Of a DNA stretch of 51,074 bases, positions 4,614 through 49,999 are shown in pieces. Source of the stretch: Psammoneis japonica (Eukaryota); contig QPGO01000220.1 of the NCBI GenBank assembly GCA_008632985.1, forward strand, positions 62,001 through 113,074, in the 5' to 3' direction. The position numbers and the translations under genes were made by a program. The stretch's first letter is position 1, and each line of letters begins with the position of its first letter. The notes under the pieces are model-generated. The model did not search any database. It was not told where the DNA came from and saw only the letters and a program-made list of their open reading frames with translations.

Positions 4614-4821
4614 AGGCAACTGTGATGGAGAGCAGCCTTGCTCAGCACCTCAGCTGGCAACAGCCTCCAATCCACACTCCTCAGCAACTTTGCTTTGAGC
4701 GTTTGTCTCATGGATGCAGGCAACTGTGATGGAGAGCAGCCTTGCTCAGCACCTCAGCTGGCAACAGCCTCCAATCCACACTCCTCAGCAACTTTGCTTT
4801 GAGTGTTTGTCTCATGGATGC
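4614..4821 (+). repeat. Tandem duplication, 2 x 104 bp
   Basis: AGGCAACTGTGATGGAGAGCAGCC...CTCATGGATGC at 4614-4717 and 4718-4821; one mismatch (GAGCGT vs GAGTGT). Confidence 0.95.
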
Positions 4822-7800
4822 ATCATTTTGAACCCACCATTGTGCTGTCCTCCCTGGTGGATGCTCAAAGGAAGAATCTCACAGTGTTTTTTCTTGCAGC
4901 AACTCTTCTGTTGATGAAACAGGTGATCATCAGGTGATGACTCTGATGCACCCACAATTCACAGCAATGACAAGGTCAGGCATTTTCAAAACAGCTTTGA
5001 ATCTTTGTTTCAGCCTTTGCACAATGAAGATGTGTGTGGCTTGACCTCAGATGGTTCCTTTGAGTTTGCAGATCCCATCAACATTGAGGACCTTGGCTCC
5101 CCTGCATCTCTTCTTCAAGACAGCCATGCTCTGGTGGAAATGAGTTCTCTGACAAAGAAGCTTCATCCTGTGGAAGAGGACCTTGTTGTCATGGTGAGAA
5201 ACAACCACCTTCTGGCTCACTTGCACCAAGACATTCTTCCCTTCTGCCACTGTGCACTCCAGAGCAATGGCAAGTTTAGCAAGATTCTGTCCTGTGCACA
5301 ACAACCATGAGTCAAATGAAGAAGAAGCTTCTTCCTTGCACCAGCCCACCTCCTTGCCAAGATGCGCTGGTCCTGAATTCCCTCCCATGCATGTGCGCCA
5401 ATCTTCTTTGTTCCACAATGCCTGCTGTCTTTCCAAGATCTGCAGTTTCACAAAGATGCCATGTGACTCTGTGAAGAGCACCAGCACAGTGCCAAAGATC
5501 CCAGCAACTGTGTTTGCAGGCCTCTGAACAGCAGTGGTTGGTGGAAAGAAGCTTGTTAAGAGCTGTTGCAGGACCTGGAAAACACTTGATGATGACTGCC
5601 CACCAGACCTGTCCTCACTTCATTGTTCCCCCACCATTGCCCGCTTTTGACAACTCAACCTTCTGTGACCAAACAGGGAGGCTGGTCACCCAGCCAGTTC
5701 TTTGCACCATGATTGGAAACATTGACAATTGTCTCTGCCACCCAGCAAAGAGCTGGTTTGTTCTGGGCATGACCCCAATGTGTCCCAAGTCCTGTGATGA
5801 AAGGCCTGAGGACAGAACACAGTGGACTGGCAAGAGAGCTGCATCAAGTTTTGCCACAATGCTCTTTGTTTTGTTTTTGCTGAAACCAAAGGCCTTGCAT
5901 CTGTGAAGCAAGGAATGCGGATTGACCATGGTGACAAACTTGGCATTCATCATTTGCAACTCTGCTTGTGCATGACAACAGGCAACACAAAAGGCCACAT
6001 GGGTGACGACATGTGTTTTGCCATTGCAGCTCTCACTCCTCCAACTTCTCCAGAATGGCCCATGATTGTGGCACCCCCCAAAAGCTCAGGATGACCCTGC
6101 CTTTGTTCATGAGTTTGTTTGTCAATCTCAGATTTCCAAGATGGTTGAAGATTCATTCAAGGTTGTGGAGTCAAGAGAACATGGCAAAGTGACTTCTGCC
6201 AGAGCATCAGCTCAGAAGAGTTTTTCAGCTCATTGTTGAAGCTGCACTCTGGGACATTCCAAATGGCGGGGGCAACGTCAATGGTGTCAATGGACATCTG
6301 CCCAGGAAAGTGCATCATTTGTTTCATCTTTTGACAATCATGAAGCACTTGCTTGAGGCCCTGCTCAACTGTCATGTGTTGCCAAAGTCAGCAAGGGAGG
6401 GGCATTTCTCTCCTGGTTGCATTGGAAGAAGGTGCCAAATGCCCTCTGAGGGAACAGGCAGCTCTGACAATGTTTCAGACTCAGAGGATGAATTTTTTCA
6501 ACTTGTCCAAAATGTTGGTGGGGTTTCTCTCATTGGCTCCAAAGTGCTGTGCTTCACTGGAAGAAAGGAAGTGATGATCTTCTTTGGCAGCTGGTTGAAA
6601 CAGCTGCACTCTTGGTTGAAAGCATGAAGAGCTTGGACTGAAACATCCTCTTGTTCCAGAAACAGGCATGACAAGCAGGGCTGTCAATCTTGTGCTTGCC
6701 TGTTTTTCAGGGATGCTGACCAGTGGCATGTTTGACAACTGGGTCACACGTGGCAGGCACTGCAAAAAGTGAAGTCAAATGAAGTGGCAGATGCCAATGT
6801 GTTGTCCACACTCAGTTTGTTGACAATGACCTGAAGAAAGGAGGGAGTTGGGAAATGGGAAGAAAGACAATGCAACAATGGAGACAGATGCATTGATCCA
6901 AACAACACTCACCAACTTGGATGGAAAGCCAAGTCCAAAGAGCAATTGGAAAATTGACAGATGGTTCCCAAAGGCAGTGGGGCACACAGACTGAAGAAAC
7001 TCCTCCAATTTTTGCAGCTGTTTTTTGCTGCCAGACTTCTTCTTGTGTTTCAAACTGGAGGTGTGGTCTCATGTTTCACTTTTCCATGCAATGCCATTCT
7101 GTCCTTTTTGAGTTTCACAATTTCTGCTCACCAAGGGATCTCTTGGTCTCTGCATCACCATCCAAAAGCCCATGTCTTCATCTGCATCATGACAGGAACT
7201 CAACATTTTTGATTTTTCCTTGAGATCAGAGATCATTTTGGCCTTGTTCAGAGTTGCCTCTTCATTTTGTTGGATTTGAGGCTCTTTTTTTTTTAGTTTT
7301 GTCAACTTGTCAAACAGTTTTTTCTGATGCTGAGCAACCAACGTGATGCAGAAAGCTGGCCAAGTGTGGGTCCCACCAGTGAGGAGCCTCAATGTGGTGT
7401 TGGGAAGGGTTGACAAACTTTCCATTGATTCACAGGCAAGATCATGAGATGAGCTGGGGATGGTGTCAAACTCAACAAGTTTGCTGGGGTGCAAACCACA
7501 ACCTTCATCGACCTGGCCAGAGTCTTTGCTCGTTTTCTTCTCGGCACCATGGCAAGCAAACAAAGCTTGGTGGCAAACCTGTTGTGTGCTGTTGCTGTGG
7601 GGAGCGAAGGAGTGCAAGATGAAAGCTTTGTGTTCCTGCATCAGACAGGGTGATGTTGCAAGCAAGTCAATGAGTCTTTGAACAAAAAATTGAACAGAAA
7701 ATTGTGAGCAAGATGGAGTTTTCCATGCAAGAATGGAAAGTGCCAAACAAGACTCAAAATGAATTGTGACACATGCAGACACAACAGCGATGTCATTGAG

Positions 7801-10233
7801 AGGTGAGAACAAAGAATGGCATGCACAAACAGAAACACCTTTGCCAAAAAACAAAAAAAAAATCAAAACCACACTGAGGCAAAAAAGCAGGGAACATGTG
7901 GGTGAAAACTCATTCTTTGCAGCCTGTGCAGACAGGTGCAACACAAAAAAGGGGACCGTGGGTGCTGACATGGGTTGATGATTTGAAAAGACACAGCACA
8001 CTTGCAATGCCACCATGCACCAATGCAACAAAGGAAGATGGGGACAAAGTGAAGCAAGCACACTTGTTGTCTGAAAAAGATGAAAGAACAATGGATGATG
8101 TCAACAAGGTTGGGCACAAGAAACAAAGCAGGTTTTGTCAAGCATGTTCAAAAGAGAAGCACAATGCTCACAATTGGCTTTGCTGCATTTGTGGTCATCA
8201 ACAAAAGAAGAGCACACAAAGTGCCAGCAGAAATTCTTGGCCAGATGTTTGTTGTGTGCAAAAAACAACAAAAAGGTGAGAAGCTGAGGCACAGAAATGA
8301 TCAATGAAGTCTTCACAAATGTCGTGCAATGGCACAATGTTGCTGTCAAATGCTGAGCTGCAGGGAGATGACATGTCAAGGGACAGCAAATCAAGGGATG
8401 GTGGGCAAGAAGCTGGCAAGATGCAAGAAATTACAAGTGTCTCCAGTTGTCAATGTTGGAAGGCAGGAAGCAATTTTGGTGAAAGAGGCAGATTGCAAAC
8501 AAGGGCTGGCAGCAAAAACCAAATGTCACAATTGGTCAGTGCAATGTGAGCTGCACAAAATGCAAACTGCAATGCATTGGTCAACAGACAAATGCAAATG
8601 AGCAGCAAACAATTGTGTGCAGGTGTGGTGTTGGCTCTTTGTTCGTGGTGCAAAAAACAGCAAGGACACACACACATGAGCATGCCAGACAATTGTGAAC
8701 AAAGCAAACAACAACTCAGCAAACACAACCCAAAGTCAAAACAGATGAAGAACAAGTTGTGCATTTTTTGTCACAAGACAGAGCCAACACATGCAAGTGC
8801 ATGATTTGCAGTTCTTTGCAACTTGTCATTTCACACTTTTGTTTTGCACATTCAAACAAGCCAAACATTTCAGACAATTGTTGTTTGCTGAATGACAAAG
8901 AAGTCATCTCTCTCTCTCTTTCTCTCTCTCTCAATGGCCTCTCTGTTTGCAATCCAGTGGGATGAAACTGGGGACCATGTGAGATGCAAAGGTTGCAGCA
9001 TGAGAGCAAATTTCCAAGGTTGTGTGAGCAACTGCAGCAGAGCAACAATGATGTGATTGAGTCTAATGCGTTGTCGCACGTGGTTGCGGAGGTTTGAGGT
9101 TTGAGAGAGGTTGTGAGCAGCAAGGGTGGGCCATTGCACCTTTCCAGAGCTTCCAAAGTTTGCTTGATGGTGGGTCATTTGGATGGCATGGGATGTGCAA
9201 GAAGACAGGGTTCTTTAACTGGGCTCTTCAGCTGTGGCAGCATTGCCAAAGATGAGGTTTGCACATGCTTTGTGGAAGAGTGGCAGTGGTTTGCTGGGCT
9301 TGTGGCCTTGGGCTTGCAGTCAGTGGCAGAGCAGTTTTATTTTTGCTTTGGCATCATCTCCTTGGTTGGAGCAGAGGTTTTCAAAGCAAAAGAGCATGCC
9401 TGTGATTGGGCCGGTGAGTGCTCCAGGCAGGTGAGCTGAGTGTGGTGGGATGGACAAGCACAAACTCATTTCTTTTTCACAGTGGGTGGCATGAACATGT
9501 GAGACTTGGAGTGAGATTGTGAGGTCCATGAAGCTCACTTGTGGCTTCTAGGGCCTGTGATCCAGGTGACATCAAAGTCATTGAGCTTGGAGGCAAATGC
9601 TTCCCAGGTTGCAGCATTGGTGGCGGGGTTGGTCGGGACATGCCAAGTGCAGCATGAAACTGTCACACACACAAAATTGCAACTGTGCACTGCACACGTG
9701 TCAATTGCACCACAGTCGTGGATGCACACAAAGGACAAAACACTCACACAGAGTTGATCAGAAGTCAAAAATTGCAAATGCAATTGACAGATGATGTTGA
9801 CATCTCATGTGTCAATGCCAGTCGGCCGCATTCGGACAATCTGTTGTCACGACTGCATTCTCTGAAAGGCCTTTTGTCTGCAGAAGCAGCGCAGAAGCTT
9901 TGGGCCATTGAGAGCTTGTTTGGAGAAACCAAAAATCACAGAGCAAAATTTAATCTCACAATTTACACTTTGTTTGTTTGCACTCATTCTTCGAGCACAG
10001 TGCACAAGTGCCAAAGACGTCGTCAATGAAGTGTGTTTGTGCAGCAGAAAAGTAACCCCATGACAAGGCCAGACACAGTGCTCCAGATGGATCAGAGCTC
10101 TCATTCTCTGGAATCACCACTGCCAACAAATGTGACAAACAAATCAGAGAAGCCAGCGCTGCACAAAAGAAAGCAGCCAAAGAATTTTGAAGCCCCACGA
10201 CAAGGCCAGACCGCGCTCCAGATGGGTGAGCTG

Positions 10234-10237
10234 TCTC

Positions 10238-10268
<31 letters not shown>

Positions 10269-10292
10269 CCCCCCCCTCTCTCTGTCTCTCTC
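10234..10292 (+). repeat. (CT)n microsatellite; a second one at about 8907-8932
   Basis: Direct reading of TCTCTC runs. Confidence 0.85.
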
Positions 10293-11104
10293 TGCCTCTT
10301 CTCAATGACCCTGCTTGCTTTCATGAAAATGTGCTGTGCACTGCTGCAGCTGCTTGTGTGTGCATTGCTGCAGAGCTGGGGGAGAAGCGGCAGCGAGGGG
10401 CTCTTTCTCTCCAGGAGAAATGTTTTGCAGCAAAGCATCATCTGCAACACACTCTTGGTTGGTCTTATCTGCTCTTTCCATTTTGCGGCACTCCTCCTTG
10501 ATTGCTCCCCCTTGCACTGCTGTGTTGCAAGAAGAAGTGCGTTTCCAGCTTCGGCGCACAGCCAGTCACAGTGGTTGAAAGGCACAATCGAAGTGCATCT
10601 ATTACATTTTCATCAATGCTGGATAAATTTGTATCCATGACACTGGGGCAATGTCACCCCAACGTCACGTCATGATGACACACTCACACACTTCAACTTG
10701 GGTTTGTACTGAAGCTCCTGTAGAAAAAGCGAACCCTGATGACGTGGCTACATCTTCTGGAGACGGGTGGCTCTGAAAGCCCTTGCCACCCATCAAGGTT
10801 TAGTACAAGCTGCGTAGCATTCTACGGAATGAGGCCAGTCCCACACTTTTTGCGTAAATTCTACGTGGAAACATACCAGCCTTGCAGCAGCAAGCCATTC
10901 GAAAAAAAAATGATCACCGCCTCATCTCCAAAAACATCGCCAAGAGGGTGTGAAGAACGAAGCAACGCTTTCTGCTGTTACGCTTTTGGCCCTCGGGCAT
11001 CTCAATCACACAAACAAGACACTTTTTTTCACTTGACAAGCGGACGGTTGGTCCGTTCTGAAATAGCAGCGCAGTAGAGAAAATACAGCAGCAACAACGA
11101 AACT

Positions 11105-13534
11105 ATGAAGCTCACGACGGCAGCTCTTCTTCTCGTATTGTCGGCCCCATCGGCGGCAGCCTTTACTCCATCCAACTTCGGAGTTGTACGGCAGCAACAA
11201 CAGCAAAGACAAAATGGTTGGTCCCTTTCGAGTGCTATCGTGGACCGAGAGAACTTGGGGGTATCAACTACGCCGACAGATATTTCCAAGATTGTTCTAG
11301 AACAACAGCCACAGACTCCCTCTGTAACTCCTCAATCGACGCAGCAGGTGCAAGCTTCGACTCGATCCTATCTTTCTCAGTACGAGGGACAATCGGGTGC
11401 GGCCATTGTGTATTCCAAGTTGGAAGAATACGGCGTGACGGTGGTGAACGGCTATTCTGGAGGAGCCAATCTCCCCCTGTTGGATCAATTCCACCCGGAC
11501 CATCCGAGGCATGCTGCTGCCCATAAAGAGCCGATTCGTTGGATTACCAATTCCAACGAGAGTTCTGCTGGTCATATCGCCGAAGGATACGCCAAGAGCT
11601 TACCCGGAGAATTCCCCATTGGCGTCGCGATTGCGACATCCGGCCCGGGCGTGACGAATCTCATTACGCCCCTTCAGGACGCCATCTGTGACGGAGTTCC
11701 CATGTTGGTCATGTGTGGACAAGCCGCCACTACGGCTCCTCAGGACGCTTTTCAATCGGCACCTGCCGTAGACATGACGTCTCCCTGTACCAAGTGGAGT
11801 TACCAAATCAAGTCGGCAGCCGAAATCCCCATGGTGATGGATTACGCCTTTTTCGTCGCGACACACGGCAGACCGGGACCCGTCTTTGTGGATTTGCCCA
11901 AAGATTTGCAAAATCAAATTCTGACACCCGAGCTGATGGATTCTTTTACGGAACGGACCGTGTCGGAAGCCAATCAAATGGACGAAACGTCCTTTTGCCG
12001 TTTAATCACACAAGCCTTGCCTAATGGACAATCCACAAAGGCGATTCATCTGGGACACGCCAAGGAGGGATTACCCTTTTTCATTGCACCATCCCAAAAT
12101 GGCGCACTCCAAGTGACGGCGTTGCCAAGACCCAACAAGGTGACAGCCTATCACGCCGACCATCACACGTCCAACAAGGTTTTCAAGCAAGACTCGTCGA
12201 TTGTCAACACGAGGCGCGTTGCGCAACAGTCGATTGAAGCCGCCGTCGAGGCAACCGTCGGTGATTTGGCTCCCACGTCGCAGATTATGAAGGGAATGAA
12301 AAAGATCATTCGACAAGCCAAGAAACCCGTCATTATTGCCGGACAGGGTTGCAACGATTGTCCGGACGAATTGCGAGAGTTTGCTGAACGCTTAAATATT
12401 CCCGTCACGTCCACGTTGCACGCGTTAGGCAGTTTTGATGAACGACACCCCTTGGCGCTCAACATGATGGGTATGCACGGTCATCCGACACCCAACTTTT
12501 TGGTGCAAGAATCCGATTTGATTATTTGCATTGGATCGCGATTTGATGATCGCATCACGGGACGTCCATCCGACTTTGTTCCCGAAGCCAAGCGGGCCGC
12601 CCTGGAGGGGCGTGGTGGAATTATTCATGTCGATATTCGTCTTTCGGAGAGAGCCAAACAGGTGGAACCAACCTACTTTGTTCATTCTACAGGAAAGAAC
12701 TTTCTTCAAACCATGAATGAAGCCTTTGCCAATGACGATTTGATCAAACCGACGCAAACCCAGGCTTGGTTGGAACACATGACACAGCTGCAACACGAAT
12801 TTCCCGTCAAGGTTCCGAAATTCCCGACTCGCGACGTGACGGTCCAAGATCCCCAGACGGGTCACTCTCTGACGTTGCCGAAAACAACAATGTCGGCACA
12901 ACACGTGATTTCCACTCTCAACGCCCAGCTCTTGCAGGCGAACCAAATGGACAATGCCATTTTCTCGACGGGCGTGGGTATTCACCAAATGGTTGCCGCG
13001 CAGCTCATTACATGGACGCAACCACGACAAATGTTGAGCAGTGGTTCGTTGGGAACCATGGGTGTCGCCCTGGGGTATGCCATTGGCGCCAAGCTTGCCA
13101 ATGGAGGAAAAATTGTGATTGCCGTGGATGGCGATGGCAGCTTCAACATGACCTTTACCGAATTGAAAACCGTGGCGGAACAGAAAATACCCGTCAAGAT
13201 TATCATTTTGGACAATGAAGCCCAAATGATGGTGGAATACTGGCAACGCTTGTTCCACGACGAACGGTATTTGGCGGTGAGGAATGAAAAGAATCCCGAT
13301 TACGTCAAACTGGCGAGTGCGTTTGGAATCAAGAGTTTGTATTGCGATTGTGAAGAAGATCTCGAAGCAAAAATGCATGAATTTTTGTTTTCGGATCCCG
13401 ACGAGCCCGTCTTGTTTCATGTTCGTATCGAACGTACACCGTGCTTGCCGCTTGTGGCGCCCGGAGAAGCTCTGCAAGAAATGATTTTGGAAGACACGGA
13501 CTTTGATGTTGACCCCGGTGCGGCTCCGAGCTAA
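11105..13534 (+). CDS. ilvB: Acetolactate synthase (acetohydroxyacid synthase) large subunit, plastid-targeted
   Basis: 809-aa ORF with motifs GYSGGANLP, AEGYAK, ATSGPGVTN, RPGPVFVDLPKD, GSRFDDRITG, SSGSLGTMG and TPP-binding GDGSFNM...NE. N-terminal signal peptide followed by AAAFTP (ASAFAP-like). Confidence 0.95.
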   Translation: MKLTTAALLLVLSAPSAAAFTPSNFGVVRQQQQQRQNGWSLSSAIVDRENLGVSTTPTDISKIVLEQQPQTPSVTPQSTQQVQASTRSYLSQYEGQSGAAIVYSKLEEYGVTVVNGYSGGANLPLLDQFHPDHPRHAAAHKEPIRWITNSNESSAGHIAEGYAKSLPGEFPIGVAIATSGPGVTNLITPLQDAICDGVPMLVMCGQAATTAPQDAFQSAPAVDMTSPCTKWSYQIKSAAEIPMVMDYAFFVATHGRPGPVFVDLPKDLQNQILTPELMDSFTERTVSEANQMDETSFCRLITQALPNGQSTKAIHLGHAKEGLPFFIAPSQNGALQVTALPRPNKVTAYHADHHTSNKVFKQDSSIVNTRRVAQQSIEAAVEATVGDLAPTSQIMKGMKKIIRQAKKPVIIAGQGCNDCPDELREFAERLNIPVTSTLHALGSFDERHPLALNMMGMHGHPTPNFLVQESDLIICIGSRFDDRITGRPSDFVPEAKRAALEGRGGIIHVDIRLSERAKQVEPTYFVHSTGKNFLQTMNEAFANDDLIKPTQTQAWLEHMTQLQHEFPVKVPKFPTRDVTVQDPQTGHSLTLPKTTMSAQHVISTLNAQLLQANQMDNAIFSTGVGIHQMVAAQLITWTQPRQMLSSGSLGTMGVALGYAIGAKLANGGKIVIAVDGDGSFNMTFTELKTVAEQKIPVKIIILDNEAQMMVEYWQRLFHDERYLAVRNEKNPDYVKLASAFGIKSLYCDCEEDLEAKMHEFLFSDPDEPVLFHVRIERTPCLPLVAPGEALQEMILEDTDFDVDPGAAPS

Positions 13535-21306: not shown

Positions 21307-21589
21307 CATTTTGGACGCATAATACTGGTTAGTCACGACGGAAAATGTATAGAGCAACATTAATCATGGACCGTCACTACTTTAGCTAGTTGGAATACAC
21401 AGTGCAATACTTGGAATCGCAGATCGATCCCACCCGTAGCGAATTGAATCGAGCGAGTGCTGAGAACTAGAGATTTATTATTGAATATAGAGTGTACCCT
21501 GGGTAGTTTTGATTGCTCAATAAAAAGCAATGAATGATGCTACTGAAATATCTGGTTTTGTGTCCATTAAGATATTGTGCAATGCGGGA

Positions 21590-22715
21590 GCAAGTCTTGA
21601 GAATGCCATCATCACAGCAGGGCTGAATCCCATGCCGGGCTTGATCATTGCCAACCTGGGTGCATGCACTCCAACCAAATGAAGCAGAAAGTCTGAAGCA
21701 AATAAACAGGCCCAGATGAATCAGCACAAAGTTGCTTCGAAAGCAGCAGTGTTGAATTGAACAATTACACAGTCCCATTGCAGAGGTCAGCACATCTGAA
21801 GAAGGGGCCCCAGCAGCTTGCTCAACAGACATCACAAGTCAAGTGCAAAGCCACACATGGCTGCCAGGTTGTCATTGGTGCTGACAATCTCAAGTGTGCT
21901 TGTTGATAGCATGGTTTTGCAAGTTTGCAAAGAGAGGAAAGCAAGCTTGATGACAAGTCCCTCTGAAGCTGATCACACGAAATGGAGAGCTGCACAAGTG
22001 CTCACTTGCTGTTTTGTGGTCAACAAAAGCTGAGCAAGACAAGTGCACTCCACTGGGCTGGCAATCAACAGAGTGCATCATTTCTCCTCCGCACCCTCAA
22101 CAAAGTCCAGCTTTTTTGATTTTTGGCAGCACCGCTTGTGTGACTTCCAGCTGGCTGGCTTTTTTGACTCAAACAATGTCCCTGTTGATCCTGTGTCATT
22201 GTTCCCCCCTTTGTTGTTCTGAGTGCCAGCACTGCCTCTGCCAAACCCAGAACAGTGTTCCTTGATGAGTCGGGAGATTGCGCCTGTGCAGCCAGTCAAA
22301 AAATGACTGAGCTCACAATCGTCGAAGATTTCCGAAAGAGCCTGGTGAAGGAAGTCATTGACATCTTGCATGGAAAGAACATGCCCCCCACTGTCAGAGA
22401 CAGTCAGTCCCTGAGAACACCCCTCAAGGCTTGCAGCATTGTGACAGCTTGGCTGGGCTTGCTGCCTGGTGCGGAGCCAGCAGAGCTCGTGATGCTGACG
22501 ATGATCTGCGGGCAGCAGGCCAGCAGGTGTTGCCGCTCCCTGTGCTCTCCCTCCCTGGACCCAACCCAACAACAGAATCAGAACATGGGTTTGGTGCCTG
22601 GGGAGGTGCTCATATATGGCTCCCAAATCAACAAGTGGATCCCGCAGGGACAAGGCGAAACTCACTGCAAGAACAATGATGCCACCGGTCTGATGATGCT
22701 GAGCAGACACCGGTA
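21590..22715. repeat. Small TpA/CpG-depleted island (degenerate repeat or gene fragment)
   Basis: About 1.1 kb with the same TG/CA-rich, TA-poor composition as 0.4-10.6 kb, between two normal genes. Confidence 0.6.
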
Positions 22716-22954
22716 GATGCGGAGCACTTCCAATTTGCGCTTAAACATCAAGTCTCGCGCTGGCCTCGCGCGAGAAAACAGGACCACTGCCGCCGACAGC
22801 CAACAGCCAACGACGACGAACGACGAACGACCTGTGAACGACGACCCCTCGAAATGGCATGAGCCATGTTGAAAGCGTTGCAACGCGGAAATTCTAGCAA
22901 CCAGAAGATCACTCGTACATAGTCCTTCACTACACAGGAGTGTTTTTACTTGTT

Positions 22955-38638: not shown

Positions 38639-38762
38639 TGGCTTGGAGCAATACCATTCACGTTACTGTGTGAAAAAATGTTTCGCAGGTTGTTCAGTTC
38701 GTTGTGATCGTTGATCGCAATCAAGCACAGTCAAGGGCGAAAACGGAAAAGATCGAAGAAGT

Positions 38763-38924
38763 TGCAAGGTCTAACGAGATAAAGACTTTAGTGATAACAA
38801 AATTGTGAGCGAAAGACCGAGGTAACGAGGGTCGCTTTCAGCGAAGCCCGTTACAACGGCTTCCGTTATATCTAATAGATTCATTAATACTATATATCAG
38901 AAAAATAGGGTGCGAGACACTGCA
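38763..38924 (-). repeat. 3' LTR (retains 16 TpA)
   Basis: TGCAAGGTCTAACGAG...GAGACACTGCA, direct repeat of 43994-44155; adjacent to the PPT. Confidence 0.97.
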
Positions 38925-38936
38925 CTCTTCCCTTCC
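38925..38936 (-). other. Polypurine tract (GGAAGGGAAGAG)
   Basis: CTCTTCCCTTCC on the + strand, immediately internal to the 3' LTR. Confidence 0.9.
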
Positions 38937-39037
38937 ATGGTTCGAGTGTCGAGAATCATGCGGGACTCAAAAATTTTCAAATTCCAATGGATGAGGATAG
39001 AAGGGAAACCCAAATGTTGGGGAGAAAACCCTTAACC

Positions 39038-42000
39038 TCAGGTACGATACGGTACGACGCGACGAATATTCAATCGTTCTGTCACATGAGGTGCACGTTG
39101 GACCGTGATCGTACCGTTAGCGTGTACTTGAACGACAGGATGTGGACCGTGAGCTCGTGGTTCGAGCTTGGCAGGATCGACAGACTTGAGTAGAACGTGT
39201 CCACCAACTTGAAAATCGTAGGATCGGCGTTTAGCGTTGGCTCGACGGAGATTCGCATTAACAATCGCTTGTCGGTGTTCTTGAATGGCAGCAAGATCGG
39301 CTAGGACCGGCAAGTCAAGAATCATGTCACGTTGAAAAACCATGGCACCGGGTGAAATCTTGAGAGCACGAGAAACCGCACATCGCATTGCATGCATGGC
39401 GGTTGCCAATGCATTGTCCACTAGTTGATTAGCCTGCTCAACATTCTGTGGAGGATAAACATGAAGCAAAGTGCGCAAGACATTTCCAACAGTTTGATGC
39501 ATGCGCTCGCATGCCGCATTGGCTTGTGGATTTCGCGACGTAGTCGGAGCGTCTTCCACTCCCGCTTGTTGCAACAGCAATTGGAAGTCCTCTCCAACGA
39601 ATTCTCCACCATCATCATGGATACAACGGTCAGGACGAGGACAACGAGACAACCAACAATTTTCAAATTGTTGGGCAATGTGAGACGAGGTTTTGTTTTC
39701 GATGCGAATGAGTTCAGTCACATTCGAAACGGCGTCAATGCAAGTCAAAGCGTTGAATTCGGTTTCATGGTTTTGAATTTCAATCTTCCAGGGACCGATG
39801 AGATCAACCGCAACTTCCGTCCATGGCAACAAAGGCGCTTCTCGTTCAGGCAGGTCCCCACATCCAGGGCCCAAAGTTTTCAAACGTTGACAATCAGCAC
39901 AATGAAATCCTTCACAGGATTGACGAAGGGCAGGATGACAGAAATGTGCGCCAACAGTGGAATGCATTCGGTGCACTCCTGCATGTCCCAAAATTCTGTG
40001 ACACCATCGTATGATGTCATGCAGCAACGCCGTTGGAACACAAATTTTCCACGCAGTCGGAGGATCATTCGGTCGAGCACGACAACAAATTACAGGACGC
40101 TGATTCACACATTCCACCACGAAGCGTTCTGGATGTTGTTGTCGCATGTTGTTCAGCTCCACGTCGATGAATTGGTGTTCTTGAATTCATTGCACAGTTG
40201 CAGGGTTTTGCATTTTCCTCGAGAGAAGGACAGTTCAAAAATGATTCACACAATTCGGGGTCGTCCACGACGGAAGAGTAAAATGGAGATGGTTCTTCAC
40301 GACGATAGGAAAAATGAGACACACGGTTTTGGTCGTCCAGTTCTTCTTCATGCGGCAGCACAGCAAGGTCGATCGCCTTAAAATCAATCAGTTTGCCCTT
40401 GTCAGGAGCACACTTCCCTTCCGCAGGAGGGTCCATGCGCGGCAATCTTGAAAAACAATCCGCCAAGAGGTCATCTTTGCCATCAACGTATTCGAAAGTT
40501 GGGGCAAAATCTTCCAAGAAGAGTCGCCCCACCTAAGAACTCGTTGAGAATTGAGCGTGCGAAAGGTGAGATTTTTATGATCTGCAAAAACAGTGCAGTC
40601 AGCTCCGAATGACATGCTCCGAAATTCTTTGAAACACATCACCACCGCCAACAATTCCTTTTCAATCGTAGAGTAGTTCTGTTGTGCTGCGCTGAGTTTT
40701 CGGGACCAGCAAGCCACTGGTTTCCCGTCTTGCACAATTGCGGCTCCCATCTGATGGTCCGAAGAGTCAGTGTAAACATGGAATGGTTTGTTGTGATCCG
40801 GGTAGACCCAAAGGGTGTCATCCAGCATCAAGGTTTTCATGTCTTCAAAGGCTCGTTGACATTCAGGGGTCCATTCCAACTTGCTCTTGCCTGTTAACTT
40901 CGTGAGTGGAGCGAGCACGTGTGAGTGACGAGGCCACATGTTGCGACAATGAGTTGCCGCACCGATGAACGATCGTAGTTGCGTCACAGTTTTAGGTGGT
41001 TGCATTCGCAGCACCGCTTCCACTTTCTTCTTCCATGGTCGGACTCCTGCAGGCGTGAGCCAATGGCCTAAAAAATCCGTCTCTTGGACACACCATTCGC
41101 ACTTGAGTGGGTTAATTTTCAGGTTGTTCTCTTCTAGTCTGGATGACAGCTCATTGAGTCGATGCATGTGAACATCAAACGAATCATCAAAAATTGAGCA
41201 ATGTCATCGATGTAAGTTTCAACATCAATTCCGTTTGCCACTTTTTCAATGATGGCTTGAGCAATGTCGGGAGAGGGTTTCAAACCCATGGCCAATCGAC
41301 AGCATCGAAATTTTCCAAACGGAGTGACGATGGCACACAAATCCTTGGATTCTTCGTCAAGTTCGATGTGACAATAAAACACAGTGAGGTCCAATTTGGT
41401 CAAGTGCTTGTGTCCCGAGCGTCGGTGAATGACGTCTTGAATGATCGGCAGAGGATGGACCTTTCGCTTGAGCACCTTGTTCAACTCTCGAAAATCGGAT
41501 GCCCATCGAACTCGTCCATCCTTTTTGGGAGTTGCAAAAGTTCCGGCTGCCCATTCAGTTGGTCCCACTGGTTCCAGTGCGCCAACATCACACAAATGCT
41601 GCAGTTCTTTCTTAAAAACGGCTTCATCCCTCTTGGACACCTCATGAGCCTTAGAATGGAAGGGGACAGCGTTGGGATCAACTTCCAAGTGAACAGTCTC
41701 ATGCGGACATTTGCCAAGCGTTCCATCAAAGAGGGTTTCATGCTTTTCAAGCACTGCCTGTAGCTCATCACGTTGTTCTTGAGTCAAGTGAGTTTGAGCT
41801 TGCGCCACTTTCGCGGATGACACTTTCTCGCATTTGGCGTCCATCATAAAAGATTGTCCGAAGGCTTCCTCATCGTCTTCGTCCCTCTCCGTCGTCTTCC
41901 AGTGTATCCAACCAATTCTGAACTGAGTTCCAATGATTGGATTGCTTCATTGGGATCGACATTCCCAACCACTTTGTCACTCCAAATCGAAAATCAAGCA

Positions 42001-42538
42001 CGATTCCGGCCTTCGACAAAAAGTCTTGTCCCAAAATTATGTCATGCTTGCATGGGGCATCAAAAACTTGAGCCGCAATGCTGTCGACTTGTTTTGACTT
42101 GTCAAATTCTGGCAATGTCAAGTCCTTCACAATGACGTGTTGGGAGGATTCATGTCGTCCGGCTGCCGTCTGAAAGCTCAACCGTCCTTCATCGTTCATG
42201 GTCGGATTCGCTCCCTTCGGCAAAACTCGAGAATGAACAAGAGTGTCAGCACCTCCTGAATCCAATGACACGCGCGACACTCGCTTGCTCTCTTGATTTT
42301 GAATGGCACGCGCCGCCATCAACGTCGTTGGCACCACATTCAATGGTTTGGGAGTCGCAGTTTTAGGGGTTGGTGCAGCGCACTCCAAAACGCCGCCCAA
42401 TTTTTCTTCATTCACAGCATGAGATTCCATCAGGTCTCCCACATTGTCATCAACATTAAAACATGTGTTTTCTTCACAATCACACGAAACATAAAAAGAT
42501 TGAGCGACACGCTCTGACTCGGGCGCTTCCGTCCCTTG
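39038..42538 (-). pseudogene. pol: pol: aspartic protease, reverse transcriptase, RNase H, integrase (several frameshifts)
   Basis: [55 protein letters not shown]...[21 protein letters not shown] zinc finger, VAVDLIGP, IHDDGGEF, NPQANAACERMH, and GPH (GPY module). Confidence 0.95.
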
Positions 42539-43760
42539 TCAATTACGCCAACTTCGTTGGCCTTGATGGGTGCGACCATTCTGATCGCATCCATTTCCAC
42601 CTCGCATCTCACGAGGCCCTCCTTGATCAAAATGGTGCGACTCCATTTGCCAGTCACCAGGAGGAGCTGCTCCAGCCGGATTTCCATGGCCTTGGGTGTC
42701 ACCGTTGGCTTGGGTGCCGTTTTGATTTTGACAATGGGATCCATTCCCTTGAGAATTCTGGGAGTCATTACAATTGCCGTAACCTCGGCCTCCATGTCCT
42801 CCTTGATTGCCACAATTGCCACGTCCTCGACCTTGGAAGTTGCCACGACCGCCTCGACCTTGGGGTCCTCTGCCTTGGCAGTTTCCTCGGCCTCCACCAC
42901 GGCCTCCGCCACAACCGCCACGGTCGGACCTCGGCCGACAGTTTTGGCTTTCTGGATTCAAAATGCAATCCTTCCACTTGTGGTCGTGATTCGCATGCAC
43001 CGGGCATCTAGATTCTGGATCCGTTCCACCACTGTTGCCACGAGAGCGTCTTGAAGCTTGAGACGAAGCACTGTTGCCTTTCCTCTTCTTGTCCTGCTTC
43101 TTGTTGCTGCTCTTGTCAGCAAAAGATTTCTCATTGTTCACACAACCAATGATCTCAGCGAGAGTGTCGTTCGCTGTCGCTCGTCCTGCTCGAGTGTGCA
43201 TCTCACGCCACGGACGAGGGAAGCCATCGAACATCATCTTTTTCTTCTGAGCTTCGTTGACTTGAGGAGCATTTCCCGGAAGTTTGTTGGAGCACCGAAT
43301 CAAGGTTTCCATGCGATCCGCATGCGCCTGCACTTCAGATTTGAATGGTTTTTTCAAAGTTGGCAAACATTCAATCATCGCATCACGCGCTTCATTGTCA
43401 CAATGAGACAAGTAAAAACGATTGATTTCCTGATCAAAACGCTCGACAGTTTTATCGGCATCATCAATTGCATTGGTCAAATTCGCCCATTTGTCCTCTG
43501 CCGCATCCGCAAGCACTTCCTCGAAATTTTCGAACAACTCCTCGCCAGCAGCACACTCCAGTTTCACAGCAATTTTACGAAAACGATCCTCAACGAATGA
43601 CAATGCTTCAACACCATGAGTGCCATCAAAACGCGGACACTTTTTTGTACGAGTGCTGCCGTCATCACACGATTGGGTCAATTTCACGTCCTCCAAGTCA
43701 GAATGCTCAAATTTAGCTTCGTGGCTGATGCAAGGCTCCTTCAACGATTCACTCATCATG
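42539..43760 (-). pseudogene. gag: gag with CHHC zinc knuckle and Gly/Arg-rich tail
   Basis: CPVHANHDHKWKDC, basic KKQDKKRK and RGG repeats; located between the 5' LTR and pol. Confidence 0.85.
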
Positions 43761-43993
43761 AAAAAGGGAATGCAATTGTTCAATGGTCCTTTCCAGGGAC
43801 TCTGCCTTTGACTCCAAATGATGCACTCGGCTCGCCAAATTCTGCTCGTGTCGTTTGCACTGTTGCACTTGTTTCTGGTGCTCAATGGCCCAAACTGCTG
43901 CTCTTGCACGCAGTTCTCTTTTCTCACGTTCAGTCAATTTGTTTGCATTGTTCCCAGTCTCCATCCAGTTCTTTGAATCGACTGTAATTACAG

Positions 43994-44155
43994 TGCAAGG
44001 TCTAACGAGATAAAGACTTTGGTGATGACAAAATTGTGAGCGAAAGACCGAGGTGACGAGGGTCGCTTTCAGCGAAGCCCGTTACAACGGCTTCCGTTAC
44101 ATCCAATAGATTCATTGACACTGCATGTCAGAAAAATAGGGTGCGAGACACTGCA
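43994..44155 (-). repeat. 5' LTR (10 of 16 TpA converted)
   Basis: Direct repeat of 38763-38924 with 10 transitions, followed by TSD GAAGT. Confidence 0.97.
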
Positions 44156-44203
44156 GAAGTCACCCCAAGCTACCGGCGTGCGCAGATGGACACCGATGCC
44201 ACG

Positions 44204-44511
44204 AATTGCTGAACAATTGCGCGACACACGTGCCCGAAGGGTGATTGTTGCTTCGGGCACGAAATTCGAGCTTCGCGCACGTAGAGACCGTAGAAAACAT
44301 GCCAGCATTCGAGAATGTCCGATTTGTGTAGATCACACAGCACAGCACCACAGAGGTCATTGATGAAATTACTGCAACGACTCATGCGACTACAATGAGA
44401 TTTTCAACACCACACACTGTGTAGAATGGACATCTGCGCGAAGGAAGAATGTTGCTTCGGGCAACGACATTCGACCTTCGGGCATGTGTATCGCGCAATT
44501 GTTTTGCAATT
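44204..44511. repeat. Inverted repeat (about 37-bp arms) with internal direct repeats
   Basis: AATTGCTGAACAATTGCGCGACACACGTGCCCGAAGG (44204-44240) vs CCTTCGGGCATGTGTATCGCGCAATTGTTTTGCAATT (44475-44511). Confidence 0.8.
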
Positions 44512-44669
44512 TGTAGCAGCGCAGATGGACACTCAAAAGGTCATTTTGGGCGTTTGACCTTCGTGCGAGTCATCCGAGAGCACGCGCCGAAAACAACACA
44601 CAAAACGAAGCGAAAGAAAAGAACGATCTCGGATGAATGCAAAAGCTCTTCATTGCCACAACAAAAAAC

Positions 44670-45290
44670 ATGACCAAAACAGATGGTGATGCCACCATTA
44701 GAAGGTCTACAAAAGACAAATCACTTGAAACTCAGCTTCGCAATGCCGACCTCGCACAAGCCACCCGTCAACAGCAAGTCATTTTGAGAGATGCCAGGCA
44801 AATTCTCGACGACAGAAACAGCACTGCACGTGACTTGAAAAAGGCCAGCAACTGTCTGAAAATTGTTTGTGAAACACTCTCTATTGTTGAAAAAGCTGCT
44901 GTTGAATCAAATGCTGTTTGCAAAAGAATCCAAGATGCCGGGTGTTCCGCGTGCGCATCGAAGGCTCGCGGCTTCGGAGAATTGGAGCCAACGTCTCTGC
45001 CAAGTCCCAACAACAGGGAAGACAAAGAAAATGTCCCATCACCAGCAGCTTCCAGAAAGGCCAATGAACTCATTGAGCTGGAGCTGCTTGCCTTGTGCAT
45101 CAAGACGCCACCTCCTGGCGATCGCAAACTCTCGAAAAAACGAAAAGGGGACACGAAAAATTCAAACGAGTCAACTCAAAAGAAGAAGTCAAATGCAACA
45201 GCAAGATCCAAAAAGTGGCGGCGGGCATGTCACGTCGTGGTCCGTCATGCTGCACACATGGATCTTTTCGACATCGCACTGCTCGCCAAC
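44670..45290 (+). pseudogene. TpA-eroded coding sequence for a coiled-coil/basic protein, upstream of the RNase H copy
   Basis: Protein-like open frame (MTKTDGDATIRRS...KKRKGDTKNS) with no Tyr and almost no TpA. Confidence 0.4.
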
Positions 45291-46690
45291 GAACGTTCCA
45301 CATGCGAGATCTTGAGTGCAACTCCTGCGGCAACGGCTGCGAAGCGTGCGGTGACACTCCAGATGTCACTTTTTGTCATGGATCGCGATGGTCGTTCGTT
45401 GGATTTCGCCTTTGGTTGCTGTTCATCACACCCCACGTCTCAAACACATGCTCCACGTCAAGGTGCTGTGCTTGTTCACACGCCACACGCTTCTCATCTG
45501 CATCTCTGTTGTCATTTTCCTCTGTCGACTCTGTTCAACAACGAGGACTGCATCGCAACCTTTCTGTTCATTGCCTTTTCGTGTTGCAGACTTTTGCACT
45601 TTATGCTCCAAATGGGATGCTGTCACACTTTGATCCTTCGATTTGATGGTGTCTGTCGTGGCAGGAGCAGGGACTCGGGAAGTGGATGGGTGCTTCTGGA
45701 CGGAAAGAACAGCAAGGTGGTTGCCAAAGGTCGACACCACATTGGAGCGGAAGCCACCAACAATGTTGCGGAGTGCATGGGTGTTTTGGGTGGATTGATG
45801 TTCATTCGCAATGAAGGCATTCAGATTCACAACATGCTGCACGTCCAGGGAGATTCGGAGCTGGTCATCAATCAGTTGAAGGGTGAATGCCAAGTGCGTT
45901 CCCCACGTCTAAGACCGCTCTACAACCACTGTCAAAAGATGCTGTGTGACTTTGACTTTGTGGTGGACTTCAAGCACATTCACCATGATCACAACACGCA
46001 CACTGACAAGCTGGCCAACCAAGCTGTTGATTGGCAGGAAAGTTCTGCCGAGTGGTTGTGAGCTGCAAATTCAACCGGCCAGAGCAGGCAGGGGAGACGG
46101 GGGAAAGCATGTGTTTGTGACCAAGTGCCACCAAAACATCACAGCAGTGGCAGAAATGGTTGTTGTGGGACAATTAGAAGAACTCTTTGCTTTCAGTGCA
46201 CAATGACTTCTAGAAGAAATCGATGTCCAATGATTTTTAGCACATTCACCGGGAGCGCAACAGCGTCGCCGACTGTTTGACCAATGAAGCCATTGATGAT
46301 GAGACTGGTTCTCCCAAGTGGTGTTGCTGCAACAGCAGTAAAAAATCACAGGCACAACTGATCGACTGTCGACAACAAAGAATGACAGAGAGTGGTCAGG
46401 TGTGAGCTGTCGTCATTCGATGCTTTGGTGCACATGCCATGGCAAAACACTGCAACATGCCGACATCATCGACCAGCTCATTCTCGTGCCCTTCAACTTT
46501 GCATTGTGTTCCAAACTTTGAGCATGCCCATCCCAGAACCAAAGCTCACTCATGTCTTCAAACTCCGAAACACAAGTTCCCCGACTCTTTTAGTTTGACA
46601 GCTGGAAGCACAGACATTCACAGGCACTTGCTGCTTGCACTGCTGAAAATGAAATGAGAAAGCCGAGAGACGTCCTAAAGAATCACATTG
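45291..46690 (+). pseudogene. Hypermutated copy of a roughly 1.4-kb segment containing an RNase H gene (RNase H domain 45612-46061)
   Basis: Aligns with 49246-50612; RFDG.CRG, TNNVAEC, VQGDSELVI and KHIHHDHN carry Tyr->Cys/His and Arg->His changes. Confidence 0.9.
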
Positions 46691-46699
46691 CGCCCAACA

Positions 46700-48120
46700 C
46701 ATGGAAAGTTTTTCTTGTGGAAGTGAATGAGGTTCTTGTGGCCAACTTCAAAAGGTGCTCCTTGTTCTTTTTGGTCACTGGTGCCATCACTTGCACACCC
46801 AGCTTCTTGGCCCTTGTCACTCCACTGCTCAGCACTGACCCCAGCCACCCCAGTGGTGCATTTCCAGGGCTCTTTGTCCTGAGAAGCAAGATTTCTAAAG
46901 CCATGATGCCTGCCAATTGGAAGCAGCCTGCACTGGTGTGCAGCTGGGCCTGCTCTGCACCCAGCTGCCCCAAGGTGTGATGCAGCAAGTTGCCAGCACA
47001 GAGAACCCCAAAGCAAATCACTGTGATGGCTTGCACCTCACAGCAACTGTCATGCCAGTGCACGCACCTGAGTGTGAATTCCAGTTGCAATGTCAGAATG
47101 GCACAATGCCACCACACTGCCAATGAAGTGTGCTGAGCAGCACGTTTGCTGGGGGCAGCTCTCCAGTGTGGTTGGAACGAAGTTCGAGATGGAGGAGGGC
47201 TCTTTCAACATCCCACCAGTTTTCTCAAAGTCACAGTCAAAGGCTTGTTGGACAATGGCTGTTTGGAGTGGAAGCACTTTTGTGAAGCCCAGCTGTGTGG
47301 CTGCTCATTTTCAGCTTGGAGACCCCTGAATTCGGTGCACCTGAACCTTTTCTTGCTAAGCTGTTGTTTGATGGTCAAAGCAGCAATGCTGGCAATGATT
47401 TCAAAAGCAAGGGAGGCAACAACAATGCAGAAGACAAGAAAGGTGGTTACAACAACAAGATGCACTGCTTTTTTCTTCATTGTGCTGCAGCTTGCTCCGG
47501 GTGCTGAAGCGGTCAATCTGCGATCATGCTCCACATTTCAGTGCAAGGCAAGCCAGTGGGAGGGCCGCCACAAGGCCATCCATGGTCTGTCCACTGTGCA
47601 GATTTTGGCTGACAACCTGCCAGAAGTTTGTTTTCCATGCGGTCAGGACATGTGAAGCTGGGACAGCAAGAGCTTCAAAAAGAAACCAGAGCAGCCTCGA
47701 CAGCAGCAACAAAACAGCAACAATCTGCTGCTGACATCACACCTTCATTGTCATTGCTGCCAACACAACAGCACTCCAAACTGCAGCACAATGCCAGTTC
47801 CACCATCTCAGCCATGACAGCAAATTTGCGACAACCATCTTCACTGGGAGCGCCGCTGGCACCCCCCTCCAAAAGACAGCGGCCAGGGCAAGAAAAAGAG
47901 GAGGGCCTGTGGTGGCAGCTGACAAACTGCCACTGGCATCCACATCACTTCTCGCTGCAGCAGGAGCAGTGGCACCTGCTGCCTCTGCACCGTCTTTCCA
48001 ACAGCACAGCCACATTGTCAACGCGGTGCAGCAATTGCACGGCACATGGGGGAGCTCTGTGGTTCGAGGAGAGAAAAGTGGGGGTGGCTTTTTGCTTTTT
48101 GTTCAATTTTTGGCTTTGGT
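46700..48120. repeat. TpA/CpG-depleted degenerate sequence
   Basis: Same TG/CA-rich composition as 0.4-10.6 kb; normal composition resumes at about 48140. Confidence 0.6.
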
Positions 48121-48307
48121 GGACAGATGAGCAGACCATACGGTACAAGGCATCTTCTATCCTATCAATCAACATCACCAAGCACAATAAAACGATTGAA
48201 ACCCAAAACGAAGCCGTCTTACTTGATGCTGTCTTCTATCTCATCCTTAAAACTAACACAACCTAACACAACAACAGCATCATACCCTCAACAGCAAACC
48301 AATCAAC

Positions 48308-49206: not shown

Positions 49207-49549
49207 TGGAATCAGAATGGCGGGTTGCATTTCGTTCTCGACCACGAACTTTCTACACGCGAGATCTCAGTACAATTCCTACGACAACGGCTACAAAACG
49301 TGACATCTCCGATCTCTTGGATCTAAAAACCTCGCCCCTCTCGTTGTTGTTCATCACAACCAACACGACCACGTCTCAAACACGGTCCACGCTCCACGTC
49401 AAGAAGATAATGTACTTGTACACGCTACACGCTTCTCATCTGCTTCTCCGTTGTCATTTTCCTCTGTCGACTCTATTCAACAACGAGGACTACATCGCAT
49501 TTCTTTTCTTAACCTTCGTGTTGCAGACTTTACTCCTTTACTCCAAATA

Positions 49550-49999
49550 ATGGTGTACTATCACACTGTGATCCTTCGATTTGATGGTGCCTGTCGTGGC
49601 CGCGACAGGGTCTCGGGAAGTGGATGGGTGCTCCTGGACGGAACGACGGGCAAGGTGGTCGCTAAAGGTCGCTACTACATTGGAACGTACGCCACAAACA
49701 ACGTTGCAGAGTACATGGGCGTTTTGCATGGATTGAAGTTCATTCGCGACGAAGGCATTCAGATTCGCAACACTCTACAAGTCGAGGGAGATTCGGAATT
49801 GGTCATTAAGCACTTGAAGGGTGATTACCAAGTTCGTTCCGCACGTCTAAGACCGCTCTACAGGCGTTGTCGAAAAATGCTTGATGACTTTAATTTTGAC
49901 TCGGACTTTGAGCACATTTACCGTGATCGTAACCAGTTCGCGGACGAGCTGGCCAAGGAAGCCATTGATTGGGGAGAAAGTTCTGCCGAGTGGTCGTGA
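49550..49999 (+). CDS. RNase HI (RNase_HI_like / RVT_3 family), intact copy; may have an upstream exon (acceptor TTGCAG about 49526)
   Basis: LRFDGACRG...GSG, TNNVAEY, VEGDSELVI, HIYRDRNQFADELA carry the acidic catalytic residues. Confidence 0.88.
   Translation: MVYYHTVILRFDGACRGRDRVSGSGWVLLDGTTGKVVAKGRYYIGTYATNNVAEYMGVLHGLKFIRDEGIQIRNTLQVEGDSELVIKHLKGDYQVRSARLRPLYRRCRKMLDDFNFDSDFEHIYRDRNQFADELAKEAIDWGESSAEWS

Follow-up and report, generated by a model that had tools for sequence, protein, structure and literature searches.

Mutation confined to the dinucleotide TpA has been described in integrated viral DNA of the rhizarian (chlorarachniophyte) alga Bigelowiella natans, and the same signature is found here in a Ty3/Gypsy long terminal repeat (LTR) retrotransposon on the minus strand of a 51,074-nt stretch of contig QPGO01000220.1 (positions 62,001 to 113,074, referred to as the window). 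In the mutation-accumulation experiment of Mettrop et al., as presented in the main text of the preprint, 231 of 302 nuclear mutations fell into two integrated viral regions; A→G and T→C made up 230 of these 231, and every GC-biased mutation was located on TpA (bioRxiv 10.64898/2026.01.13.699255). The same text reports that TpA-poor coding sequences of B. natans are enriched for reverse transcriptase and DDE domains, and its authors propose an ADAT2-like DNA adenine deaminase, as a candidate only (bioRxiv 10.64898/2026.01.13.699255). The words diatom, stramenopile and retrotransposon are absent from this main text (bioRxiv 10.64898/2026.01.13.699255). In the literature searched, we found no diatom report of TpA hypermutation and one description of the signature, that for B. 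natans.

As far as the B. natans case is set out in that text, the giant-virus and virophage DNA and the window share (i) changes restricted to A:T→G:C at TpA, with both TpG and CpA as products, (ii) tracts that reach beyond the annotated insert, of foreign DNA there and of probably foreign or mobile DNA in the 51 kb seen here, and (iii) rates orders of magnitude above background. The two cases differ in host, a chlorarachniophyte there and most likely a stramenopile (diatom) here, and in target, integrated viruses there and an LTR retrotransposon dated by its own LTRs here. They also differ in the observed/expected ratio of TpA, which is 0.45 in the B. natans viral region compared to 0.14 in the element and 0.00–0.10 over 10 kb of the window. 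As a further difference, the older tracts of the window have lost CpG as well, and the evidence for B. natans is experimental, whereas ours is comparative only.

Three further systems share individual traits. Repeat-induced point mutation (RIP) of ascomycete fungi also inactivates integrated transposon copies by dinucleotide-specific transitions and may leak into neighbouring DNA, but it converts C to T at CpA and thereby makes TpA and stop codons, whereas conversion of TpA to CpA or TpG in the window raises G+C and makes no stops. ADAR and APOBEC3 enzymes likewise cause clustered, deaminase-type transitions on parasitic nucleic acids, and ADAR prefers U before A; they act on RNA or single-stranded cDNA, before integration and on one strand, whereas both strands are affected here, after integration and with flanks included. 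CpG decay by deamination of 5-methylcytosine also ends in TpG and CpA and is seen in the other tracts of the window (CpG observed/expected 0.03–0.3), but its substrate is different, it is much slower, and it is absent from the element (0.93–0.96). We consider it probable that the element, inserted into the nuclear genome of what is most likely a raphid pennate diatom, has undergone post-integration hypermutation of its DNA, in which only T:A pairs within TpA were converted to C:G.

Loss of conserved tyrosines in a complete Ty3/Gypsy element

The element (38763–44155 of the window, 5393 bp) is a complete Ty3/Gypsy (Metaviridae) retrotransposon: two LTRs of 162 nt each form a direct repeat with TGCA..TGCA (TG..CA) ends and are bordered by a short target-site duplication, and the Pfam domains on the minus strand follow the Ty3/Gypsy order Asp_protease_2, RVT_1, RT_RNaseH_2, Integrase_H2C2 and rve, collinear by tblastn with relatives of 1100–1200 amino acids. 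Its pol frame is no longer that of an autonomous element, since it carries four frame changes, an in-frame TGA and the loss of 14 conserved tyrosines. According to tblastn with the three closest full-length relatives, the reading path runs through frame −2 (42496–41885), frame −3 (41889–41191), frame −2 (41197–40529), frame −1 (40526–40203) and again frame −2 (40216–39044), with changes near 41887, 41194, 40528 and 40213 that lie in or beside short homopolymers. All three stops on the coding path are TGA (39038–39040, 42539–42541 and, in frame just upstream of the integrase open frame, 40187–40189), as would be expected when TAA and TAG are erased and new stops cannot arise. Among the matches listed, no close sibling copy was found in the protein databases, the best identities being 57–63% for the reverse transcriptase frame (near lengths) and 66% in the integrase-frame search.

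We determined the replacements by comparison to related proteins. The integrase-frame search returned 307 proteins at E ≤ 0.001 from 5137 candidates, 120 of which were listed; the alignment was built from the first 60 of the 82 listed relatives with 1000–1300 amino acids, without the remaining 22 or the 38 that differ in length, and five window segments were added to it as fragments. The window deviates at 53 of the 413 columns that are at least 80% conserved among the 60 relatives. At the 21 columns with family-conserved Tyr, the window has Tyr 6 times, Cys 8 times, His 6 times and Phe once, and the codons at the 14 Cys and His replacements are TGY or CAY without exception, while other conserved residue types are retained at 69–100%. 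When each of the 60 relatives was left out in turn as a control, Tyr was replaced by Cys or His in 10 of 1212 Tyr cells, with at most 2 per relative (Fisher P = 1e-21 for window versus relatives). A second set, comprising the match regions of 77 metagenomic relatives, gave 43 such replacements in 1385 cells; the corresponding tblastn-based count for the window was 14 Cys or His, 5 Tyr, 1 Phe and 1 Lys, one column being aligned differently. The tyrosines lost from the catalytic core are 88–100% conserved among the relatives.

These counts confirm the systematic conversion of conserved Tyr codons to Cys and His that a reading of the letters without database searches (the sequence-only reading) had noted in gag-pol. 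It had named eleven peptide strings between 39300 and 43760 in which Tyr would be expected. All are located on the minus strand and ten lie in this interval, while GPH (39140–39148) lies about 150 nt outside. Tyr is the majority residue among the 60 relatives in ten of the eleven; the Cys column of AHFCHP is ambiguous (23 Tyr, 20 His, 8 Phe). Where the window has Cys or His, the relatives show Tyr in 37 and Phe in 23 cases for WCH, and Tyr in 53 for GPGCG, 59 for RCPRP, 49 and 60 for the two positions of THCR, 60 for KFRCC, 59 for HKHL, 56 for VHPLP, 59 for GKCPH and 58 for VACWSRKL; GPH corresponds to Tyr in 39 and Phe in 20. The possibility that relatives from other species share the same Cys and His residues, by which the sequence-only reading stood to fall, is thus not borne out, as the relatives carry Tyr at these columns. 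Four findings go beyond that reading: the timing after integration, tract borders apart from the element ends, the same change in adjoining non-Gypsy DNA and the parallel in B. natans.

The relatives also keep their TpA. The observed/expected ratio of TpA in pol is 0.43–1.04 in the 77 metagenomic relatives compared to 0.19 in the window, and none of 2680 windows of 500 bp in their loci falls to 0.15 or below. TpA loss is therefore not a trait of the family.

Four of the metagenomic relatives show elevated replacement of conserved Tyr by Cys or His: 7 of 19–21 in L068 and L069, and 4 of 15–18 in L054 and L046. We did not count them as further hypermutated cases, given TpA observed/expected ratios of 0.62–0.66 and divergent sequences; they may represent a mild form of the process in other organisms or just divergent subfamilies.

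Timing, rate and specificity of the TpA changes

An element integrates with two identical LTRs. In this pair we count 10 differences, all located on the 16 TpA of the 3′ LTR, with G or C in the 5′ LTR at each of them. On the plus strand, the products in the 5′ LTR are 6 TpG and 4 CpA, and no TpA is private to the 5′ LTR. The 130 non-TpA positions are identical throughout, and the chance that all 10 differences fall onto the 32 of 162 nt that constitute the TpA of the 3′ LTR is 9e-8. At 44021, the LTR place among the difference places listed for the sequencing run X1 (see below), all 11 aligned contigs read A and the 5′ LTR of the window reads G, so that the 5′ LTR represents the derived state. 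Together with Tyr in the outgroup, the 10 of 10 LTR differences and the contig letters at 44021 uphold the direction TAY→TGY/CAY that had been proposed from the codons. From the divergence of the LTRs it follows that these changes, at least, took place in genomic DNA once the element had integrated. Approximately one event has occurred per TpA, while ordinary substitution remained below 0.012 per site (95% bound); as estimated from one LTR pair, the rate would thus be at least about 40 times background.

The same specificity is found in the coding sequence. For 26 of the 53 deviating conserved columns, changes of TpA to CpA or TpG suffice to turn a codon of the conserved residue into one for the residue of the window. 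These 26 comprise the 14 Tyr changes, three L→S (TTA→TCA), two V→A (GTA→GCA), one I→M, one I→A and five exchanges of a codon-initial A for G following a codon that ends in T (t|ANN→t|GNN: I→V, M→V, T→A twice and N→D). Of the replacements predicted by the sequence-only reading in addition to those of Tyr, L→S, V→A and I→M occur with these counts; neither L→P nor I→T was found. The remaining 27 differences lie inside the range of ordinary relatives (14–55, mean 25).

An RNase H-like (RVT_3) open frame in a TpA-poor tract outside the element (44637–46061) provides a second comparison, as it has a paralogue in normal DNA (49304–49999) with 54% protein identity. The 22 TpA of the normal copy correspond to 8 CpA, 8 TpG and 3 retained TpA in the tract copy, which has no private TpA and whose protein shows YY→CC, YY→HH and further Tyr to Cys or His changes. 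The two paralogues may be genes of the host or belong to another mobile element.

Measured by the B. natans pattern, changes of almost only A:T→G:C type are found in 10 of 10 LTR differences and 26 of 53 conserved-column differences, and the hits on TpA distribute over TpG and CpA products by strand as 6/4 in the LTR, 8/8 in the paralogue and 15/12 in the coding sequence. The latter correspond to 15 A→G and 12 T→C inferred events on the sense strand, which form 14 runs where 14.3 are expected; both strands are thus hit alike and without strand-coordinated clusters. Double hits (TA→CG) occur in none of the 10 LTR events and none of the 16 paralogue events, as expected if each hit requires an intact TpA. 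The mutated part of pol contains 99 TG and 74 CA per kb on the sense strand, compared to 65 ± 12 and 78 ± 10 in 27 relatives (those of the 77 metagenomic loci picked for long matches of ~3 kb or more). Among the known events, with 15–20 half-sites each, we found no clear effect of the flanking base (mutated fraction 0.30, 0.37, 0.38 and 0.47 for the outer neighbours A, C, G and T). Of the TpA that survive in the depleted tracts of the window, 55 of 79 stand in TAA or TTA contexts, compared to 353 of 1022 TpA of normal DNA, and none in ATAT. The reaction may therefore be weaker when the outer neighbour is A, but the few dated events gave no confirmation of this.

Loss of TpA and loss of CpG are separable. 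Between 39500 and 43990 we observe 42 TpA where 295 are expected (0.14) and 246 CpG where 264 are expected (0.93). Over the element, CpG observed/expected ratios of 0.93–0.96 versus 0.14–0.18 for TpA substantiate the claim that the loss of TpA is independent of CpG decay; that it is also earlier is plausible from those other tracts of the window that lost both. The last ~740 bp of the element including the 3′ LTR (38763–39499) are not depleted (33 TpA and 49 CpG, 52 and 40 expected), and the tract border falls within the element, in the interval from the TpA at 39456 to that at 39541. Tract and element are thus not coextensive.

Compared copy against copy, the change is one of DNA, post-integration, TpA-specific, fast, tract-wise and on both strands, from T:A to C:G. 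In the mechanism that we propose, a T:A pair in TpA would be converted to C:G and yield TpG or CpA depending on the strand that is hit; since the product is no longer TpA, each TpA would be hit at most once. The reaction would proceed in tracts whose borders differ from the element ends, much faster than ordinary substitution and CpG decay, and would destroy TAY codons (to TGY or CAY), but also TTA, GTA, ATA and A-initial codons following T. As no stop codon can be created in this way and TAA and TAG are removed, the element would remain largely open, with missense changes at catalytic-core positions and TGA as the only stop. We infer that an enzyme may act on foreign or silenced DNA and deaminate the adenine that follows a T, with inosine being read as G when the DNA is next replicated. 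Mispairing of a modified TpA thymine with G would lead to the same sequence outcome; because TpA is its own reverse complement, either base could be the one attacked. Considering that the tract border falls inside the element, that the 3′ LTR is spared and that a TpA-poor stretch stands at flank depth in X1, our guess is that targeting is regional (chromatin-like) rather than copy-by-copy.

Competing explanations and significance

A passive by-product of base modification on TpA in silenced chromatin, without a dedicated mutator or defence enzyme, is an unlikely account, although several observations fit it. The sharp tract borders ignore the element ends and enclose DNA at flank depth in X1, as would a chromatin domain, and the older tracts have also lost CpG, as is expected of methylated, silenced DNA. 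In dinoflagellates, moreover, thymine is replaced by 5-hydroxymethyluracil preferentially at TpA. The very high rate of about one event per TpA versus none at 130 non-TpA LTR positions speaks against a passive process, and we know of no TpA base modification of this kind in diatoms. Furthermore, the main text on B. natans describes mutations in some lines only, which the authors read as regulated activity (bioRxiv 10.64898/2026.01.13.699255).

Editing before integration, either ADAR-like A-to-I editing of RNA or deamination of single-stranded cDNA as by APOBEC3 on retroviruses, would agree with a retroelement as the target, with the excess of TG over CA on the sense strand and with U or T 5′ of the edited A, an ADAR preference according to the B. 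natans main text (bioRxiv 10.64898/2026.01.13.699255). It is nonetheless improbable. The LTRs differ at 10 TpA, so that those changes came later; sense A→G and T→C are mixed (15 to 12), whereas editing of genomic RNA gives only sense A→G; and adjoining non-retroelement DNA carries the same change. In the retroviral model, the cDNA just upstream of the polypurine tract remains single-stranded longest, but exactly this stretch is the untouched part of the element. ADAR-type editing, transcript-strand-only and pre-integration, was consequently rejected on the 12 of 27 events that are sense T→C and on LTRs that diverged after integration.

An artefact of assembly or base calling, for example a modified TpA base misread as G or C by a long-read caller, can be weighed with the DNA run X1, which consists of contigs, may be the sample behind the window assembly and provides depths that are not copy numbers. 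In X1, the share of sampled 31-letter words of 38700–44200 that are present is 0.51. The region of the element is covered by 1980 pieces at ≥80% likeness (450 at ≥99%, 496 at 95–99%, 536 at 90–95% and 498 below 90%), and the flank has a summed word depth of 58.5; the spectrum of pieces indicates that the element family is repetitive in X1, with diverged copies. Transitions prevail among the differences (952 places versus 280 with transversions). In the best-supported 40 of 1241 difference places, contigs carry T or A for C or G of the window at 19, of which 13 would recreate TpA, 5 lie at CpG and 1 is neither; 12 places show the opposite direction, 1 of them at a TpA of the window.

The low word share, the 13 of 19 listed places that recreate TpA and the frameshifts by homopolymers would be expected of an artefact. 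However, a 3830-nt X1 contig over 45622–48500 differs from the single-copy TpA-poor tract by 7 letters in 2879 nt, in a stretch with 11 TpA compared to ~80 expected at normal density, which argues against a base-calling artefact. Likewise, 450 pieces are at least 99% alike, the 3′ LTR, the 3′ end of the element and neighbouring genes have normal TpA, and a repeated family with many diverged contigs accounts for missing words and variant letters. We therefore regard an artefact as highly improbable for the TpA changes. The frame changes are a separate matter: X1 contigs are 1–2 letters short at all four (41883, 41189, 40526/40527 and 40213) and also at 38978, all in or beside short homopolymers, and these indels may be real slippage in this copy or assembly errors.

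Ordinary divergence, adaptation to a TpA-poor host or RIP-like C→T change in other copies is scarcely credible, even though host genes in the window are also low in TpA (observed/expected ~0.4–0.7): catalytic-core tyrosines of 88–100% conservation are lost, the LTR change is recent and limited to TpA, and relatives of many sources keep both Tyr and TpA, by which ordinary divergence is already refuted as far as present data go, while RIP, with its C→T at CpA and its excess of TpA and stops, was rejected because it runs in the opposite direction, TpA stands at 0.14 of expectation, and the three stops are all TGA in otherwise open frames.

Post-integration hypermutation at TpA thus remains our preferred explanation, against which several points have to be set. 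At the element places among those listed, 39431, 42011, 43721 and 44021, no aligned contig carries the letter of the window, and X1 may be the assembly's own data and hence dependent on it. The stretch 46073–48138 has a summed word depth of 58.6–64.9 in X1, at the level of the flank, so that a dependence of the process on repeats is unsupported. We have no explanation for the untouched last ~740 bp with the 3′ LTR beyond the guesses that an unmutated copy recombined with the element or that a chromatin border lies there. Even with balanced event counts, the surplus of TG may leave room for more A→G than T→C at silent sites of the sense strand. Finally, a single element, a single LTR pair and a single pair of paralogues underlie the deduced process, and the most likely placement of the host among diatoms derives from one gene and the named diatom relatives of the element.

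On a wider scale, we tentatively raise the possibility of a dedicated system common to diatoms and chlorarachniophytes, which would recognise foreign DNA that is newly integrated or silenced and convert nearly all of its TpA to CpA or TpG, as a kind of RIP in reverse and probably by adenine deamination. It would run to saturation, with almost no TpA remaining in tracts of 10 kb, act before and independently of methylation decay, and leave long open frames. If such a system existed and were homologous in both lineages, it would represent an ancient genome defence, of the stramenopile–alveolate–rhizarian (SAR) supergroup at least, and would be the first adenine editor of DNA known from nature to target one defined dinucleotide. 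The signature in a diatom retrotransposon would place TpA hypermutation, described once in one rhizarian alga, in a second major, ecologically dominant lineage, and the question of the enzyme could be approached by comparative genomics of both hosts and by genetics in tractable diatoms. What the window adds is a date after integration, tracts close to saturation and a clear distinction from CpG decay. For annotation, long open frames with only TGA stops and lost Tyr codons could cause false gene calls and missed decayed transposons. A natural adenine editor of double-stranded DNA acting at a defined dinucleotide would, in addition, be of interest to base-editing technology.

TpA-poor tracts and other features of the window

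The coordinates of the element, of its parts and of the TpA-poor tracts are collected in Table 1.

Table 1 Positions of the retrotransposon, its components and the TpA-poor tracts, numbered from the first letter of the window
Feature	Position	Strand	Evidence or remark
Complete Ty3/Gypsy element	38763–44155	−	Terminal direct repeats; Pfam and tblastn domain order gag, protease, reverse transcriptase, RNase H, integrase; target duplication
5′ LTR, TG..CA ends	43994–44155	−	10 of 16 TpA present in the 3′ LTR gone
3′ LTR, 16 TpA (observed/expected 1.17), apparently untouched	38763–38924	−	LTR comparison
Target-site duplication ACTTC, 3′ side, 5 bp	38758–38762	−	Sequence reading
Target-site duplication ACTTC, 5′ side, 5 bp	44156–44160	−	Sequence reading
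Polypurine tract GGAAGGGAAGAG, immediately upstream of the 3′ LTR	38925–38936	−	Sequence reading
gag-like open frame, 464 amino acids, without Pfam match; TGA end in frame with the protease frame	42539–43933	−	
Protease segment, frame −2; conserved Tyr at 42046 changed to His	41885–42496	−	Pfam, tblastn, alignment
Reverse transcriptase segment, frame −3; 7 of 9 conserved Tyr are Cys or His; YIDD intact	41191–41889	−	
End of reverse transcriptase and RNase H segment, frame −2; 4 of 7 conserved Tyr are Cys or His	40529–41197	−	
RNase H–integrase linker, frame −1	40203–40526	−	tblastn
Integrase open frame, H2C2 zinc finger and rve core; GPGCG and RCPRP with Cys for Tyr of relatives	39038–40186	−	
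TpA-poor tract inside the element	39457–44130	.	Dinucleotide counts
TpA-poor tract outside the element	44515–48138	.	15 TpA in 3.6 kb; CpG also falls from ~45500 (right half); sharp edge at 48139
RNase H-like (RVT_3) open frame in TpA-poor tract	44637–46061	+	Paralogue of 49304–49999 in normal DNA
TpA- and CpG-poor tract, sharp edges	~590–10466	.	18 TpA and 68 CpG in 550–10450; longest TpA-free gap 1737 bp
TpA- and CpG-poor 1-kb intergenic island between ordinary genes	21574–22612	.	TpA observed/expected 0–0.25, CpG 0.15–0.30

One of the tracts in the 51 kb is made up by this retrotransposon and one contains the RVT_3 copy, while the 10-kb and the 1-kb tract are without recognisable content; ordinary parts of the window have observed/expected ratios of ~0.4–0.7 for TpA and ~1 for CpG. 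In the 10-kb tract, CA and TG together reach ~1.8 times expectation. None of 19 open frames in the tracts free of TpA and CpG gave a Pfam match above the curated cut-offs, and the open frame 22078–22740 has no Pfam match. A tblastn search of the window with 270 Gypsy-type proteins gave one match outside the element (E = 0.004), and neither an LTR nor a terminal inverted repeat was found in 1–11500.

The segment between the 5′ LTR and the next tract (44137–44514) has near-normal TpA density. It is itself repeated, as many diverged X1 contigs cover it and its summed word depth is ~3300 compared to 58.5 in the single flanks.

The window is gene-dense with long uninterrupted frames. Its acetolactate synthase (11378–13531) has its best named matches, at 64–68% identity, in raphid pennate diatoms (Mayamaea, Bacillariaceae, Phaeodactylum, Cylindrotheca and Nitzschia), and the named relatives of the element's reverse transcriptase are from Thalassiosira and Ditylum.

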